From Escherichia coli (GTDB lineage Bacteria > Pseudomonadota > Gammaproteobacteria > Enterobacterales > Enterobacteriaceae): a stretch of DNA of 64,000 nucleotides. The notes under the pieces are model-generated. The model was not told the DNA's origin and did no database searches. It worked only from the letters and a program-made list of their open reading frames with translations. Made by a program: the position numbers and the translations under genes. Below are positions 56,166 through 63,807 of this stretch, one piece after another; position 1 is the first letter of the stretch; each line of letters starts with the position of its first letter. The stretch lies in assembly GCF_016026235.1 (NCBI RefSeq), contig NZ_CP065613.1; one strand, 5' to 3'.

Positions 56166-56771
56166 TCATTGTAAATAATTGAATAACGGCCCCTGAGCTA
56201 AAATCGCCAAACTTAAGCACGTTACCCAATCGCCCCACTTCTTCCTCTGGTTTCTATTTTTTCTGCACCAATGGCAATAATATCCCAATGCAAAACCAAG
56301 CTGTGCACTAATCGGGCCGACAAAATCAGTCCAAGGCTGCGGCCAAAAAGGGGAAAAATTCAGGGGAGGCCAGACAAACGTCAGAAAGAAATTTCGGATA
56401 TTTTCCAGCAACGCTGATTTCTCTGGAGAAATATAAAGAATGAAATTCGAGAGAATTAACCAGAAATAGACCGGCGAAAAGACCAGCCAGCAATGCAGTC
56501 TGTTTTTTAATTCAGGAGGCGTTCTGCGGGAGAATTGCCAACCGATGCCAGCCATTACACTGAAAAAAAGTGCATATTCAACCATTAACTCAAGTTGTAA
56601 TTCCTGAAGAGAAATACGCACAACCAGGAGCGGAAAGGAGAATATTATTTCTGCCAGAAAAGTTAACGTGAATATAAGTACGGCTAAGACAATAACCGTC
56701 GGCCATACCAATAATGGCACGATAACAAAACCGAGAATTACAGGGGGAATATAAAGCCGGAATTTAATCAT
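56166..56771 (-). CDS. hypothetical small polytopic membrane protein (island ORF 4 of 4)
   Basis: 201-aa ORF MIKFRLYIPPVILGFVIVPLLVWPTVIVLAVLIFTL...; about four hydrophobic segments; CHWC motif near the C-terminus; starts 2 nt after the upstream ORF stop; AT-rich codon usage. Confidence 0.6.
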   Translation of the reverse strand: MIKFRLYIPPVILGFVIVPLLVWPTVIVLAVLIFTLTFLAEIIFSFPLLVVRISLQELQLELMVEYALFFSVMAGIGWQFSRRTPPELKNRLHCWLVFSPVYFWLILSNFILYISPEKSALLENIRNFFLTFVWPPLNFSPFWPQPWTDFVGPISAQLGFALGYYCHWCRKNRNQRKKWGDWVTCLSLAILAQGPLFNYLQ

Positions 56772-56773
56772 TT

Positions 56774-57541
56774 TTATTTTCCTGGTGATTCGGATGATGC
56801 GTCATACATCGCGCATAAACACTCATCAATTATCCAGTCATCTTCCCAGACCTGATATTCTGTCATTGGTTCGGGCTGTTTTAGCGGGTTCTCAATCGCT
56901 TGCCGCGCTCTTTCTTTCAGTAAAGGATGATTATTTCTAGCCCAGGCATTGATTTGGGTGGTAATGACGTTATCGATATCGTCCTGGTTATCTCTGATAT
57001 AATCCTCACAATATCTGTTCAATAAACAGGCAAGAGAAACGGTCGACCAAAAGCCGGGAACTGAATTAATGGCATCCAGCAATGGCGCAAGAGCGATATC
57101 GGCACGGAAAAACATTTCCAGCATATACTGTAATTCGACAGCTTCATCGCCGGATACCCAATCAGTCATATACTGGCAGGCAAATCGCTGTAAAATTGCC
57201 CGTTCATCCGCACGCCAGTTTTCTTTGTTGGCAAGGTTGATACGGCGCAGAGAAAAAACTACGTGAATATTGTCAAAATGCCCCTGTGCAACAAATTCCA
57301 GTAAACGCGGCAGAAAATAGCGGACCTCATCGCTATTTTGCGGATCAGGCCCTGGGCTACTATTCCAGGCATTGATTAAGGAATACGGGATCGCTCGTAA
57401 CGATGTACTCCGTAATGCCTTTTGTTCCTGCTGACTCAGGCAATATTCACAACAAACCACAAATTTCTGCGGCACCCGATAACGACGAAAGGTGTGATAA
57501 ATCTGCTCAATTAATGCCTGCATGGCGGGGCTGGGTTGCAT
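56774..57541 (-). CDS. hypothetical soluble protein with cysteine motifs (island ORF 3 of 4)
   Basis: 255-aa ORF MQPSPAMQALIEQIYHTFRRYRVPQKFVVCCEYCLSQQEQ...; N-terminal CC-x2-C and C-terminal ECLC motifs; 2-nt gap to both neighbours; no family recognised. Confidence 0.6.
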   Translation of the reverse strand: MQPSPAMQALIEQIYHTFRRYRVPQKFVVCCEYCLSQQEQKALRSTSLRAIPYSLINAWNSSPGPDPQNSDEVRYFLPRLLEFVAQGHFDNIHVVFSLRRINLANKENWRADERAILQRFACQYMTDWVSGDEAVELQYMLEMFFRADIALAPLLDAINSVPGFWSTVSLACLLNRYCEDYIRDNQDDIDNVITTQINAWARNNHPLLKERARQAIENPLKQPEPMTEYQVWEDDWIIDECLCAMYDASSESPGK

Positions 57542-57543
57542 AG

Positions 57544-58254
57544 TTACCCCCTCGCCCGCTGATCGCGTGTAAACGGTTGATAGACAAAACGAGCATTCGC
57601 CGCGTTCAGGCGAATAAGGGCGCTACGCGAAAGGGAAAAGCTGGGGCGAATGCAACTATTGCAGTCTCGACAGCTTTCCTCTGCGCAATTTTCCACTGAG
57701 TAATGACGCGTGTAGAGTTTCAGTTCGGCCTGCTTATCGCGAAATCCGCGTAAACTGTTATTGTTATGAAATTTCCAGGCATCTTTAAAGACCTGAAAGA
57801 TATAGACATCCTCAATCCAGGAGTCACATTTTTTAAGCGGGCGCTTTGCTATTATCACCCGCTCATCCGGATTTAGCATCGCCGTAAATTGTACGGTGAC
57901 GTCATTTGTCGTGTTCAGGTCACATTGAACATCTGGTACATCACTGATATAGGGGTCAAATCCAAAATCAGCACCACAGGCACAAAGACGGCTAATGGTG
58001 GCGGTATCGAGGGAAAATCCCGGCCATACCTTGCTGGAGGTTAAGCCAATATTTAATGTGACATCATATCGAAGCAATCCCTCAAGACCGTCAGCACCGA
58101 CGAACTTTTCCCCTTCATCCAGGGCCTGGTTAATAAGTTGCTGAACAATGCCTTCATCCCAGTATGCCGATTTGCAGTTGGCAATCGTAATATCCACGCC
58201 TGTGAAGGGATCAGTACCGGCAAGGCTTGCAAATAATGTATTAACTAATTCCAT
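57544..58254 (-). CDS. hypothetical soluble protein with C-terminal C-x4-C-x2-C-x2-C motif (island ORF 2 of 4)
   Basis: 236-aa ORF MELVNTLFASLAGTDPFTGVDITIANCKSAYWDEG... ending ...ENCAEESCRDCNSC...; no family recognised. Confidence 0.6.
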   Translation of the reverse strand: MELVNTLFASLAGTDPFTGVDITIANCKSAYWDEGIVQQLINQALDEGEKFVGADGLEGLLRYDVTLNIGLTSSKVWPGFSLDTATISRLCACGADFGFDPYISDVPDVQCDLNTTNDVTVQFTAMLNPDERVIIAKRPLKKCDSWIEDVYIFQVFKDAWKFHNNNSLRGFRDKQAELKLYTRHYSVENCAEESCRDCNSCIRPSFSLSRSALIRLNAANARFVYQPFTRDQRARG

Positions 58255-58269
58255 TTTTATTATCCAGCT

Positions 58270-59787
58270 TTAAGGTAGCGTCTTATACATCGGGACATAA
58301 CCTACATCTTCCACCAAACTCTGTCCCTGCGGCGTTAAAAACCACTCCAACAATTTTTGTGTCTCTGACGTCGTATTTTCCCGCGTTACCATAAAGGCAT
58401 CGACGATATAGGGATATTTGCCGTTGCGAATGTTTTCGGCAGTCGGTGCAATACCGTTAATCGCTAGCAGTTTTATATTTTTATCGGCGTTCATTTGTGT
58501 TGCGTAATAACGGAAGGTGTAACCTATTGCGTTGTTTGTATTACGGTATTCGGCAACGACTTTAATCATTCCCTCCATCATACTTGCCACTTCTGTTTCC
58601 TGCGGCGAGATCATGCGGACATTTTTCATGACCTGGGATTGCATCACCGTCTGGCTGCCAGAGTCTTCCGGGCGCTGCCAGGTCTGGATCTCCTGATCGT
58701 TACCGCCAACAGTACGCCAGTTGGTAATTGCACCACTGAAAATGTCACGCACCTGTTGTTCAGTCAGGGAATTAACCGGATTATCCGCATTGACGATGAA
58801 AACGAATGCTTCACGGGCAAAGGGGGTGTACAGCAAAGTGACACCAGATTCCTTTGCACGTTTTTTTTGCCCACCGGAAGGTTGCGCCACAAAAATAATA
58901 TCAGCATCGCCCTTAACGATTTTGTTATATGCTTCTGGCGTACGAGAGTTTTCCAGATAATCCCAAACGTGAAAATCCTCTGGTATTACACTTAATGCAT
59001 AAAATGCAGAAGCATAAATTGGGTACGCAGCCGTGGCGCCATCGATTCGCGGCCAGTTTTGCCTAAACTGAATTTGCGGTTTGCCACGCAGTGGCGTCAG
59101 TCGATTATTGAGTTTATCGGGTCGCCAGGCCCAGATATCAATATTTTCGCGTACACCGACACCAGGATTTTGCTGCTTATATAAATGGGCCTGATACCCA
59201 GCGACAATACCAAGTAAGAGAAGTAGAAACAGGAGTAAGTTACGGCAACGTAGTCCGGACGTGCCGGATAAAGGATATCTGGTCGGCCAGGCGTATCCCA
59301 GCGAAAAACTGATATGCGCCCCAACGGGAATAATGACCATCCACCAGTACTCACCACCCACTAATGAGACTAAAAAAACGCCCAACCAGGGAAGCATAAG
59401 GTTTGCCAACCAACCAGCTCCCATCTGGCGAAATTGATAATCTGCCAGATGTAGCGTGATTATCCAGCCAACCAGGGTTAATAGCGCGGGTAAGAGAAAA
59501 AAGCATTGCCGCCAGACGGCTATTTCTCTGTTTTCTGGCGCGCTATCACCGGCCCACACGCGACCAGAGAAAAATATTATTACCGCCCCCAGCGTCAGCA
59601 TAAAGACGTTGAGTAGAAGATAAATTGTTGGCGTGATAAGGATATTACAAACTTCAATAATACCGGTAAGCCCGACACCCAGCATGGCAACAACCGCTGC
59701 CAAAAATTGCGCCAGTATGGGGATGCCGAAAAAAGTCATTATCAGCGAGGTCAAAATCCATTTTCTATTTGGCATCATTCTGTCCAT
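58270..59787 (-). CDS. hypothetical membrane-anchored protein with C-terminal PstS/PBP-like periplasmic domain (island ORF 1 of 4)
   Basis: 505-aa ORF: the N-terminal ~200 aa contains about six hydrophobic helices; the C-terminal region (...ADNPVNSLTEQQVRDIFSGAITNWRTVGGNDQEIQTWQRPEDSGSQ...) resembles the phosphate-binding-protein-like (PstS) fold signature. ATG at 59785-59787 is preceded by AGGAAG. Confidence 0.65.
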   Translation of the reverse strand: MDRMMPNRKWILTSLIMTFFGIPILAQFLAAVVAMLGVGLTGIIEVCNILITPTIYLLLNVFMLTLGAVIIFFSGRVWAGDSAPENREIAVWRQCFFLLPALLTLVGWIITLHLADYQFRQMGAGWLANLMLPWLGVFLVSLVGGEYWWMVIIPVGAHISFSLGYAWPTRYPLSGTSGLRCRNLLLFLLLLLGIVAGYQAHLYKQQNPGVGVRENIDIWAWRPDKLNNRLTPLRGKPQIQFRQNWPRIDGATAAYPIYASAFYALSVIPEDFHVWDYLENSRTPEAYNKIVKGDADIIFVAQPSGGQKKRAKESGVTLLYTPFAREAFVFIVNADNPVNSLTEQQVRDIFSGAITNWRTVGGNDQEIQTWQRPEDSGSQTVMQSQVMKNVRMISPQETEVASMMEGMIKVVAEYRNTNNAIGYTFRYYATQMNADKNIKLLAINGIAPTAENIRNGKYPYIVDAFMVTRENTTSETQKLLEWFLTPQGQSLVEDVGYVPMYKTLP

Positions 59788-59870
59788 TCTTCCTGAATGA
59801 CGGAATTATACTCCCCGAGAACCCTCGCCCCCTCTGGACACTTTTCCGAAATGATGGCGAAAAAAAACGG

Positions 59871-59882
59871 GACCCTTTGGCC
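59871..59882. repeat. left copy of the 12-bp target-site duplication flanking IS4
   Basis: GACCCTTTGGCC, identical to 61309-61320. Confidence 0.9.
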
Positions 59883-61308
59883 TAATGCCAGTCAGTTAAG
59901 CAACTGACTGGCTCTTTTTCGGGGCTGTGGGGTATTTCCAGGGCCTCTCCTTTACCACTCTCGGGAAGGCCCTTCCCCTTCTCGTCGGTAATTTCACAAG
60001 TTGTCCCATACTTGCAAGATCGCGCATCAGCTCCGGTATACGTCCCGGTGAAGCGCCCTGCAATGTCATCAGCATTCTCATCACCATTCCGCATGATTCT
60101 GAGAAACTCAGTTGATTCGGCCAGTAACCTTTCAGATGTTCCGCCATTTTAATCATCTGATATCTCACCAGATTATAAGCCAGTAAGACACCCCACAGCT
60201 CTTGCTCCACAAGCTCCGGCTTTTTACTTCTCAGCGTCAGCCTGCTCAGTTGCATCGTCTGTTTTATCTCCCTGTATCCCAGTTCGATTTCCCAGCGATG
60301 ACTGTACAGATCCGCCATTTCTCCTCCGGGGAAGCGCATGGCGTCCGTCATCGACGTCAGCAGATGGCAGACTTTTCCTTTGCGCGTCACGGTCAGCAGG
60401 CGGGCTGTCACTTCATTTCCCAGTCCCGGCCACTTTTTTCGTGCCTGCGGGCTGGTTTTCAGCTTCACCAGATGATCGCCTTTACCCAGTTTTCTGAGCT
60501 CTTCATATTGCGCTCCCTTTCTGAGAGGTATCATCCAGTGGCGGTGTTCTCCCGCCAGGCTCCAGGCATTTAACAGTCCCAGTGAGTAATAACCTTTATC
60601 CATTAACGTCAGAGTGTTATCGCCGGTTTGTTCTATAAGTTGCTCAGCAAGCTCATTTTCGCTGTTCTTCATCGTGCCGAAGGCTGCAGCCGTCAGCAGA
60701 TGGCTGGTCAGTTCCATCTGGCAGACCATTTTGACCTGCGGGTAGAGCGCCGGGTTCCCGGCATGTGTCTGGCGGGGGAAGGCTGCATCGTTCTCTGGTG
60801 TATCCGGTGTGCGCCAGAACACACCATCGATGGCCAGCAGGGTCAGGCCGCACCAGTGCGGATGCGGCGTGGCGTTATGCCAGAGCTGCGCTGTTTTCGT
60901 GAACACGCGGCGGACAGCCTCACTTCCCAGGCGCTGGCGGGCCTGAATAACGGCACTGGGGGCAACGAAGGGGCGATTGCCCGGCAGCATGATGTCCAGG
61001 CGATTCACAATCTGGTGAAGAGGTTCTTTACGCTCAAGCGCCATGCCAACAATACACCAGACCATCATTTCGAGGGGAAGACGGCGCTTGCGTAGCGTTA
61101 CAGTACCTGATTCGGCAAGGCAACGAGAGATGAGTTCGGGGTCGAGGTAATCCCCCAGAGAAGTCAGTGGGTTACGCAGAGAATCGTAACGGGATACCAG
61201 ATCAAGAGCCTGTCCAATGTGCATAAAAAAATCCGGAAACAAGTGAGCGTTTCCGGATTCTTACACAGCCACTGGATCGGTCAACTGATCCTTAACTGAT
61301 CGGCATTA
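59883..61308 (-). mobile_element. IS4: complete IS4 insertion sequence (1426 bp)
   Basis: Terminal 18-bp imperfect inverted repeats TAATGCCAGTCAGTTAAG (left) and TAATGCCGATCAGTTAAG (right, reverse complement), 16 of 18 matching; one transposase ORF inside; flanked by a perfect 12-bp direct repeat; 1426 bp equals the canonical IS4 length. Confidence 0.95.
59896..61224 (-). CDS. insG: IS4 transposase (DDE)
   Basis: Track ORF 59896..61242 trimmed to [48 protein letters not shown]..., 442 aa, recognised as IS4 transposase InsG. Confidence 0.93.
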
Positions 61309-61320
61309 GACCCTTTGGCC
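61309..61320. repeat. right copy of the 12-bp target-site duplication flanking IS4
   Basis: GACCCTTTGGCC, identical to 59871-59882. Confidence 0.9.
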
Positions 61321-61341
61321 CCGTTCTATTTATTGGTGAAA

Positions 61342-63807
<2,466 letters not shown>

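Follow-up and report, generated by a model that had tools for sequence, protein, structure and literature searches.

An intact, very recent IS4 insertion at the apex of the predicted glgP terminator of Escherichia coli

Introduction

IS4 is a classical insertion sequence of the textbooks. It reportedly has the target consensus AAA-N20-TTT, and an IS4 insertion in the pheST attenuator is said to have been described by Mayaux et al. in 1984. The IS4 of E. coli K-12 (insG; IS4 family, IS4 subgroup) has the same length, 18-bp inverted repeats and single 442-residue DDE/YREK transposase as the copy described here. There is no structural difference between the two, and the nucleotide identity of the present copy to RefSeq-annotated copies is 99.6-100%.

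Conservation of the target arms of IS4 was described by De Palmenaer et al. 2008 (PMC2266710). In the literature that we searched, the AAA-N20-TTT consensus was not found, only a general remark on "target arms" in that paper, from which the word "terminator" is absent. An explicit link between IS4 and intrinsic terminators, or a cross-genus survey, was likewise not found in this literature. A preprint (bioRxiv 10.1101/2024.06.02.596822) was rejected as a source on IS4, since "IS4" was matched there through "IS481" only. Several other insertion sequences, IS1397/ISKpn1, IS621 and ISPpu9, home to extragenic palindromes of the REP/BIME type (PMC1525189). They resemble IS4 in occupying intergenic palindromes downstream of genes, with limited damage to host genes. 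However, they are IS3- and IS110-family elements that target REP sequences, whereas IS4 uses A/T-flanked sites, such as terminators, and also inserts at coding sites.

Results

An intact IS4 copy adjacent to glgP

We analysed a 64-kb stretch of E. coli DNA (the window), which contains a complete IS4 of 1426 bp on the minus strand (59883..61308), its ends defined by terminal inverted repeats. The right repeat (IRR), at the 3' end of the transposase gene, is TAATGCCAGTCAGTTAAG (59883..59900, plus strand), and the left repeat (IRL), at the 5' end, is TAATGCCGATCAGTTAAG read on the minus strand (61291..61308). These 18-bp imperfect repeats begin TAATGCC and agree at 16 of 18 positions. They are the only matches to the IS4 inverted repeats in the 64-kb window, with no third (chance expectation 0.01). 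Both are abutted by the direct repeat GACCCTTTGGCC, 12 bp long, 100% identical and spaced by 1438 bp, with one copy beside IRR (59871..59882) and one beside IRL (61309..61320); empty sites hold a single copy. An exact 12-bp repeat at precisely both borders of the element is not a chance occurrence.

The transposase gene (59896..61224, minus strand) encodes 442 residues plus a stop codon from an ATG start, with no frameshift; RefSeq chooses an alternative TTG start at 61242, which gives 448 residues. The protein matches the NCBIfam IS4 family transposase profile NF033592 over its full length (303.8 bits, cut-off 115), and the Pfam entries Nterm_IS4 and DDE_Tnp_1. Its Y(2)R(3)E(6)K signature spans residues 307-321. 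The putative catalytic triad is D133, D209 and E314, with the two aspartates as tentative assignments, and the D(75)D(104)E spacing lies inside the family range given in PMC2266710. IS4 isoforms are about 1.4 kb long, with 18-bp imperfect inverted repeats and a single DDE/YREK reading frame, and duplications in the IS4 subgroup are of 10-13 bp. The element shows all of these features: the length, the repeats, an uninterrupted reading frame and a duplication of 12 bp, about one helical turn.

Comparison with RefSeq-annotated copies revealed 100% identity over 1426 bp to the annotated IS4 of the enteroinvasive (EIEC) strain CFSAN029787, whose chromosome and large plasmid both carry such copies, and 99.7% identity to one annotated insG. 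Where other E. coli have IS4 at this site, their copies are 99.6% identical, differing by 5-6 SNPs. Relative to WP_000483766, the commonest variant in E. coli, the transposase has two substitutions, L243 (not I) and G417 (not E). The L243/G417 variant is that of CFSAN029787, large plasmid included, and the same transposase occurs at 10 more places in other assemblies, of which GCA_016026215.1 accounts for 9. A preliminary description, made from the sequence, had reported a 1426-bp IS4 with 18-bp imperfect repeats, an intact 442-residue transposase and a perfect 12-bp duplication, the whole spanning 59871-61320. These coordinates and features all hold, and the identification as IS4 is borne out by the complete identity to the CFSAN029787 copies. 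The element is thus a known one, an ordinary IS4 copy with the known target-arm specificity, and offers little that is new in itself.

The element lies between glgP (glycogen phosphorylase, 815 residues; 61342..63789, minus strand), defined by its reading frame and the annotation of homologous loci, and four downstream reading frames. The glgP gene, the transposase gene and all four are on the minus strand. The glgP stop codon (61342-61344) is 21 bp from the duplication. The first downstream frame (ORF1; 58270..59787, minus strand; 505 residues, 502 in public records) has its ATG at 59787, 83 bp from the duplication, or 92 bp with the RefSeq-style Met4 start. The spacing of 21 and 83 bp and the shared orientation given in the preliminary description were correct.

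An empty site with identical flanks

The assembly GCA_018228945.1 has the empty site, with one copy of GACCCTTTGGCC, and its flanks of 2692 + 4613 bp (7.3 kb) show 0 mismatches. E. coli FDAARGOS_943 is also empty, with 100% identity over 963 bp at the site and 6 mismatches in 9.85 kb. Because an empty site matches both flanks without a mismatch and contains a single 12-mer, the insertion is a very recent event. Identical copies at many loci, together with this empty site in relatives of identical sequence, are indirect evidence of transposition activity. The preliminary description had called the element intact and recent and had suggested a comparison with IS-free genomes. The uninterrupted transposase and the recovered empty site, with its single GACCCTTTGGCC and its identical flanks in GCA_018228945.1, agree with this. 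It had also stated that nothing in the sequence could refute the insertion. This was too strong: had the search for an empty site failed, the claim would be weaker, but the site was found.

The target is a predicted glgP terminator

Reconstruction of the target in window orientation gives AAAAAAAACGG(GACCCTTTGGCC)CCGTTCTATTT, with the duplicated segment in brackets. On the minus strand this reads AACGG(GGCCAAAGGGTC)CCGU8, a hairpin with a U8 tract. Folding of this site gives a GC-rich stem of 10 bp (-16.7 kcal/mol, z = -3.7), followed directly by U8, and the hairpin starts 18 nt past the glgP TAA. The fold points to the IS4 target being the apex of a predicted Rho-independent terminator of glgP, now split in two. 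The right target arm CCGTTCTATTT (61321..61331), on the minus strand the former terminator's 5' stem arm, is still joined to glgP. The left target arm AAAAAAAACGG (59860..59870), on the minus strand the 3' stem arm with U8, is now 1438 bp away. The folds that remain are weak, at -4.1 kcal/mol before U8 and -7.5 kcal/mol on the glgP side, which has no U-tract. It had been proposed that the insertion may have displaced the glgP terminator; this was right and can be sharpened, in that IS4 sits in the hairpin apex and separates the two arms.

A consensus terminator scan called no terminator at the empty glgP site (lineage L005). The likely cause is that the upstream A-rich sequence pairs greedily with the U-tract, so that the tail is absorbed into the stem; the scan makes the terminator less certain but does not contradict the fold. 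The same scanner did not flag the hairpin inside IS4 that is described below. Since it missed both, terminator function rests on folding and position. Disruption of a known 3'UTR sRNA was considered and rejected, as no Rfam family overlaps the site, whether occupied or empty.

Hairpins and a promoter-like site within IS4

A hairpin of about 15 bp followed by a U-run (61227..61262, minus strand; -18.8 kcal/mol) was identified within the element as an inverted repeat and by folding. It lies 47-82 nt into IS4 and ends 2 nt short of the transposase ATG. The glgP transcripts would run into IS4 and most likely end at this hairpin and U-run, which is likely to act both as a stop for glgP read-through and as an attenuator of transposase expression. 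Close to IRL is a promoter-like site (61257..61284, minus strand) with TTGACC, a 16-nt spacer and TG-n-AAGAAT, a candidate transposase promoter as a consensus match only. At the other end, a perfect 11-bp hairpin (59887..59912; -19.0 kcal/mol) covers IRR and the transposase stop codon. It is terminator-like on the plus strand only, where TCTTTTT follows, and has no U-run on the transposase-sense strand.

The downstream operon retains a candidate promoter

The preliminary description held that the insertion probably separates the downstream operon from its native promoter or imposes read-through or promoter control by the element. Indeed, IS4 lies just 83 bp upstream of ORF1 in the same orientation, and an uncoupled four-gene operon would be silenced, or driven by read-through or by an outward IS4 promoter. 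Read-through is physically possible, as the IRR hairpin has no U-run in the transposase sense and the residual terminator half folds at only -4.1 kcal/mol. However, a perfect TATAAT (59805..59810, minus strand), which precedes the ORF1 ATG by 17 nt, lies within the block GGGGAGTATAAT, which is conserved in the window and in three divergent lineages (L001, L002 and L005). This candidate -10 of the operon is the sole conserved promoter-like element, and it falls in the 83 bp still attached to the operon. No good -35 is recognizable for it in the aligned lineages, the consensus promoter scan did not report it, and it might need upstream sequence that is now displaced. Other observations speak against uncoupling. 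IS-free genomes have a strong predicted terminator between glgP and the operon, so that the operon cannot have depended on transcription from glgP. The consensus scan predicted no outward promoter-like site at the operon-facing end of IS4, contrary to the proposed control by an IS-borne promoter, and transcription of the transposase gene would meet the -18.8 kcal/mol hairpin and U-run first. We consider uncoupling unlikely. The operon would instead keep its own 83-bp upstream region with the conserved -10 box, and its expression is probably little changed, judging from the sequence, save for possible weak read-through from the transposase gene.

The operon had also been described as an island, which was an overstatement. 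Of the complete E. coli genomes, 5,426 in number, 4,582 have the 5' end of ORF1 next to glgP, and K-12 yzgL is a remnant of ORF1. ORF1 combines a membrane N-terminal half with a PstS-like periplasmic binding domain. Residues 250-500 match TIGR02136 at 123.5 bits, below the cut-off of 206.6, and this PstS-like domain was the only one that NCBIfam recognized, below cut-off, in the downstream ORFs. The possibility of a catalogued defence system was rejected after PADLOC gave no match for the four ORFs. A literature search on the promoter or function of yzgL gave nothing useful.

Recurrent occupation of the glgP site

IS4 occupies the identical glgP position, in the identical orientation, in 19 of the 5,426 complete genomes, and these 19 comprise at least four haplotypes of flank and element. 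The L001 lineage has its own local allele, GACCTTTTGGCC, duplicated on both sides of IS4. The other occupied alleles have flank SNPs no more than 10-20 bp from the element, and their IS4 sequences differ by 0-11 SNPs. From these sequences, the glgP terminator appears to be a recurrent hot spot that IS4 has hit independently several times. We also note that the four or five apparently independent insertions all share one orientation, which could hint at some shared ancestry.

An insertion that arose once and spread among E. coli lineages by homologous recombination, with no hot spot, would account for the exact likeness of position and orientation in all occupied alleles. It would also fit two flank backgrounds, L002/L128 and L126/L129, whose IS4 copies show 0 differences. 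Against this, L001 has its own variant of the target duplicated on both sides, the different backgrounds have flank SNPs no more than 10-20 bp away from the IS ends, and the window IS4 is 5-6 SNPs from the others and its nearest relatives are empty with identical flanks. In addition, occupied terminators at adhE (both orientations), bamD and rpoD indicate a general preference. A single origin is therefore very unlikely.

Selection could likewise favour repeated occupation of one site in one orientation. The insertion destroys the only obvious terminator of glgP, and might be adaptive through glgP 3'-end formation or mRNA stability, or through expression of the PstS-like operon. Yet the insertion is present in just 19 of the 5,426 genomes, and related backgrounds have lost ORF1 function independently, through IS2 (FDAARGOS_943), an internal stop (14EC007) or the truncation seen in yzgL, which suggests weak selection on the locus. 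Target-sequence preference by itself predicts recurrence. We regard an adaptive origin as highly improbable, and favour recurrent insertion into a preferred target.

Target preference of IS4 and its relatives

Other IS4 copies have duplications of 11-14 bp and occupy the terminators of bamD, adhE (in both orientations) and rpoD. Others lie in coding DNA with the same A-tract and T-tract arms, several of them without a hairpin. The 5,426 complete E. coli genomes have roughly 5,500 IS4 places. AAA within the left 10 nt together with TTT within the right 10 nt was found at 16 of 21 distinct IS4 targets, compared with 1.5% of random window positions. This is like the reported specificity, in which arms flank the duplication (PMC2266710). 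The glgP site differs in that its T-arm is interrupted (TTCTATTT), and it fails the strict AAA/TTT test; it has A8 on one side and inner CGG/CCG arms. There is no second AAACGG-N11-14-CCGTT site in the 64-kb window. A strict rule for the orientation of IS4 relative to the terminator was rejected, since the adhE terminator is occupied both ways. The hairpin as the sole targeting determinant was also rejected, given the several coding sites that have A/T arms and no hairpin; in view of these sites the hairpin itself may even be irrelevant to targeting.

We also surveyed 115 unique flanks of IS4-clade elements from Gammaproteobacteria, whose transposases show 40-100% identity in the parts that align. 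Five or more T among the 8 nt just past the duplication were present in 96 of the 115 flanks versus 13% of controls, and an apical hairpin with 4 bp or more was present in 57% versus 22% of shuffles. The 19-mer CCTTAACTGATCGGCATTA of IRL is found unchanged in IS4-clade elements from many Gammaproteobacteria, and relatives share this 19-bp left end without a difference despite transposases with only about 50% identity. We tentatively raise the possibility, which on balance we doubt, that IS4 and its gammaproteobacterial relatives home systematically to intrinsic terminators flanked by A/T-tracts as a "safe haven". In that case the transposase may sense the hairpin-forming palindrome besides the A/T arms, and the uniform orientation at glgP may reflect an asymmetric read-out of the target. 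The hairpin and U-run inside IS4 may then replace the destroyed terminator and shield the transposase gene from host read-through.

Discussion

Taken together, the data make it highly probable that an intact IS4 very recently transposed into the apex of the Rho-independent terminator of glgP, a recurrent and preferred target, and that the downstream operon retained its candidate promoter. The staggered cuts that IS4 makes are 11-14 bp apart (12 bp at glgP), and it strongly favours targets with an A-tract at a distance of 3-4 bp from the duplicated segment on one side and, on the other, a T-tract, also 3-4 bp away. Terminators flanked by A- and T-tracts naturally have this geometry. The glgP terminator is a near-ideal and locally unique match to the preference, which would explain why it was independently hit several times in E. 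coli.

The insertion matters little for biology at large and is already annotated in public genomes. With occupied and empty alleles and flanks without a mismatch, IS4 at glgP is a clean, datable marker between strains that are otherwise identical in sequence. Recurrent insertion at the same site and in the same orientation can mislead the phylogenetic use of IS positions. Insertion of IS4 at terminators can change the 3'-end formation of the upstream gene while its coding sequence is untouched. Finally, the cross-genus survey suggests a wider occurrence of terminator homing in the IS4 clade than the searched literature states.

Structure of the insertion

The insertion in the window is real and was correctly described from the outset. 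Direct reading of the sequence places a 1426-bp IS4 at 59883-61308, adjoined at both ends by a perfect 12-bp duplication, GACCCTTTGGCC (59871-59882 and 61309-61320). The terminal repeats, TAATGCCAGTCAGTTAAG and, on the opposite strand, TAATGCCGATCAGTTAAG, match at 16 of 18 positions, and the inverted-repeat pattern has only two matches in the 64-kb window, both at the IS4 ends (chance expectation 0.01). A single intact transposase ORF of 442 aa lies on the minus strand (59896-61224), with the 448-aa form in RefSeq beginning at an in-frame TTG at 61242. The protein scores 303.8 bits against the NCBIfam profile NF033592 ("IS4 family transposase", cut-off 115) over its whole length, contains the Pfam domains Nterm_IS4 and DDE_Tnp_1, and carries the Y(2)R(3)E(6)K signature at residues 307-321. 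The distances of 21 bp to glgP and 83 bp to the first downstream ORF agree with the preliminary description, as does the shared orientation of glgP, the transposase and the downstream ORFs.

IS4 bisects the predicted glgP terminator

On the glgP strand, the empty site, which lacks IS4 and holds one copy of the 12-mer, reads TAA-TTTCACCAATAAATAG-AACGGGGCC-AAAG-GGTCCCGTT-TTTTTT. Starting 18 nt past the glgP stop codon, it folds into a 10-bp GC-rich hairpin (-16.7 kcal/mol) with U8 directly after. Within its 70-nt context the fold has a z-score of -3.7 and is equalled by 1 of 200 shuffles. The predicted structure is that of a canonical intrinsic terminator. A simple consensus scan called no terminator at the empty site in E. 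coli FDAARGOS_943, a miss probably caused by the upstream A-rich run, which can pair into the U-tract. The 12 duplicated bases form the hairpin apex, AACGG[GGCCAAAGGGTC]CCGTT, and the staggered cuts are symmetric about the dyad; thus, the terminator has been bisected. The half kept beside glgP folds at -7.5 kcal/mol and lacks the U-tract, and the half before the U8 tract folds at -4.1 kcal/mol. Since both residual halves are weak, the earlier suggestion that IS4 may have displaced the glgP terminator was correct and even understated.

The insertion is recent

The window IS4 is identical over its full length to copies in EIEC CFSAN029787 (chromosome and ~290-kb plasmid) and related strains, and shares 99.7% identity with many further copies in E. 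coli, one of them annotated insG. Two residues set its transposase apart from the commonest E. coli protein. The exact 448-aa protein occurs in ten more places, all in other assemblies and nine in GCA_016026215.1; in all ten, the element is 1426 bp long with duplications of 11-13 bp. Searching with a 963-nt reconstruction of the empty site (flank, one 12-mer, flank) recovered the predicted IS-free allele from public genomes. E. coli FDAARGOS_943 matched the reconstruction at 100% identity; this genome lacks the IS4, shows only 6 mismatches to the window across the 9.85 kb surrounding the site, and is 99.9-100% identical to the window as a whole. Stronger evidence still comes from GCA_018228945.1, whose empty site, among the matches listed, has 0 mismatches across 2692 bp of glgP-side flank and 4613 bp of operon-side flank; the two alignments overlap by exactly 12 nt, a single copy of the duplicated segment. 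GCA_901482675.2 carries the occupied allele (99.96% identity over 7.5 kb), and fifteen further similar places exist beyond these listed matches. Because empty sites occur in sequence-identical genomes, the reading of a recent, intact insertion is upheld: IS4 arrived very recently, and it very probably remains active.

Recurrent insertion at glgP

IS4 is present at the identical phosphodiester bonds and in the same orientation in 19 of 5,426 complete E. coli genomes. These insertions represent at least four combinations of flank and IS: the window's flanks and IS4; CMZE120, in which its own local allele, GACCTTTTGGCC, is duplicated on both sides; a K-12-like background that has yzgL, the remnant of the downstream gene; and a background with a full-length downstream gene, which includes strain EC596, whose IS4 differs by 11 SNPs. 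The duplicated local allele in CMZE120 is direct evidence for a separate insertion event. A single ancestral insertion spread by recombination could also place IS4 at the same bonds in different backgrounds; this is unlikely, given that SNPs between backgrounds lie as close as 10-20 bp to the IS4 ends. The glgP terminator is thus a recurrent IS4 hot spot.

Predicted consequences for expression

Transcripts from glgP would now enter IS4 through its left end. There, 47-82 nt inside the element, a hairpin of ~15 bp (-18.8 kcal/mol; 61227-61262, minus strand) leads into a U-run whose end is 2 nt short of the transposase ATG, and this is most likely the new stop for glgP transcripts. Since it lies downstream of a promoter-like TTGACC-16-AAGAAT (61284-61257, consensus scan) and before the transposase ATG, it would also attenuate transposase expression. 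The arrangement resembles a built-in terminator or attenuator acting against host read-through and the element's own transcription.

The preliminary description further proposed that IS4 separates the downstream operon from its native promoter or imposes IS-borne promoter control. Neither proposal found support. Three divergent lineages conserve the block GGGGAGTATAAT, with a candidate -10 at 59810-59805, whereas the bases around it vary. The block lies inside the 83 bp retained by the operon; counted from the implied start, the IS boundary falls at about -85. The consensus scan predicted no outward promoter-like site at the operon-facing IS4 end, and in IS-free genomes the strong predicted glgP terminator would already have shielded the operon from glgP transcription. 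The transposase gene may still feed weak read-through into the operon, because an 11-bp hairpin at the IS4 right end scans as terminator-like for the opposite strand only.

The downstream four-gene locus

The operon comprises four tightly spaced minus-strand ORFs (56166-59787; 505, 236, 255 and 201 aa) between glpD and glgP. It had been called an island; the locus is instead common and variable in E. coli rather than strain-specific, with the cluster found in most members of the species and the 5' end of ORF1 adjoining glgP in 4,582 of 5,426 complete genomes. Among records sampled at even intervals along the ranking, ORF1 was full in ~60%, truncated as in K-12 yzgL in ~24% and absent in ~16%; the K-12 pseudogene yzgL is its remnant. 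In the ORF1 product, a PstS-like binding domain (TIGR02136 at 123.5 bits, under the profile's cut-off) is fused to a multi-pass membrane domain. ORFs 2-4 gave no convincing match to NCBIfam or to Pfam on record, and none of the four matched a PADLOC family. FDAARGOS_943, the complete genome closest to the window, has an IS2 inside the PstS-like gene (locus L005, 6370-7598) and a glpG with an internal stop, and 14EC007 (L126) has an internal stop in the PstS-like gene; the downstream gene has thus been inactivated repeatedly, in different ways. In addition, FDAARGOS_943 (NZ_CP065615.1, 3919205-3944995) aligns to window positions 1-25000 in two pieces, its own span being ~0.9 kb longer, which implies an extra insertion in that genome, possibly another IS.

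IS4 target preference

Other terminators also carry IS4: that of bamD, AAAACGG[CAGCCCTTGAGCTG]CCGTTTTTTT; that of adhE, in both orientations with duplications of 11 and 12 bp; and that of rpoD. The adhE terminator, occupied in the adhE-tdk intergenic region of three E. coli genomes (L004, L136, L140), is another recurrent hot spot. Further copies lie in coding DNA where, at a distance of 3-4 bp, the duplication has an A-tract on its left and a T-tract on its right. AAA in the left 10 nt together with TTT in the right 10 nt was found at 16 of 21 distinct IS4 targets, compared with 1.5% of random window positions. The glgP target has A8 and the inner CGG/CCG arms, with an interrupted T-arm; the motif AAACGG-N11-14-CCGTT has no second occurrence in the 64-kb window. 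One copy, between kup and a truncated GntR-family gene in E. coli SCU-172 (L137), adjoins the truncated gene and lacks a target-site duplication, which suggests IS-mediated deletion or recombination between two copies.

A search for the exact 19-nt left end of IS4, CCTTAACTGATCGGCATTA, with each species represented by one genome, gave at least 120 loci (L006-L125). The matches listed, to which all survey figures refer, include Pseudomonas, Aeromonas, Vibrio, Budvicia, Pectobacterium, Photorhabdus and other genera. Where present, their transposases are 40-100% identical to that of IS4 over the aligned part, most near-full-length matches falling at ~48-56%; the left end is thus far more conserved across many genera than the transposase that binds it (~50% identity). 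The 115 unique outward flanks are GC-rich at positions 1-4, AT-rich at 5-7 and GC-rich at 8-13, with a T-run at 15-22 (T frequency up to 0.83). At least five T in 8 nt of the T-run zone were seen in 96 of 115 flanks versus 261 of 2000 controls, and an apical hairpin of 4 bp or more in 57% of flanks versus 22% of shuffles. Six full copies have both flanks in the locus; five of these carry an A-run on the opposite side, and a duplication of 10-12 bp is seen in at least four of the five. This flank profile, together with the A-runs, points to terminator-like, A/T-flanked palindromes as the typical landing site of the IS4 clade. Eight loci (L007, L015, L062, L071, L082, L089, L091, L112), from Pseudomonas and uncultured Gammaproteobacteria, hold MITE-like elements of 122-178 bp that begin and end in IS4-type inverted repeats. 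Two are bounded by perfect duplications of 11-12 bp, and the elements, too, lie in hairpin and T-run targets (e.g. L071, L089).

The 1980s literature reportedly holds both an AAA-N20-TTT target consensus for IS4 and an insertion in the pheST attenuator. Conservation of the IS4 target arms was reported by De Palmenaer et al. 2008 (PMC2266710). The targeting behavior is thus known in essence; an explicit reading of IS4 targets as terminators was not found in the literature searched. IS4 is here a known element behaving as known, and what is added is the recognition that the glgP terminator has been cut in two by it and is a place to which IS4 returns.
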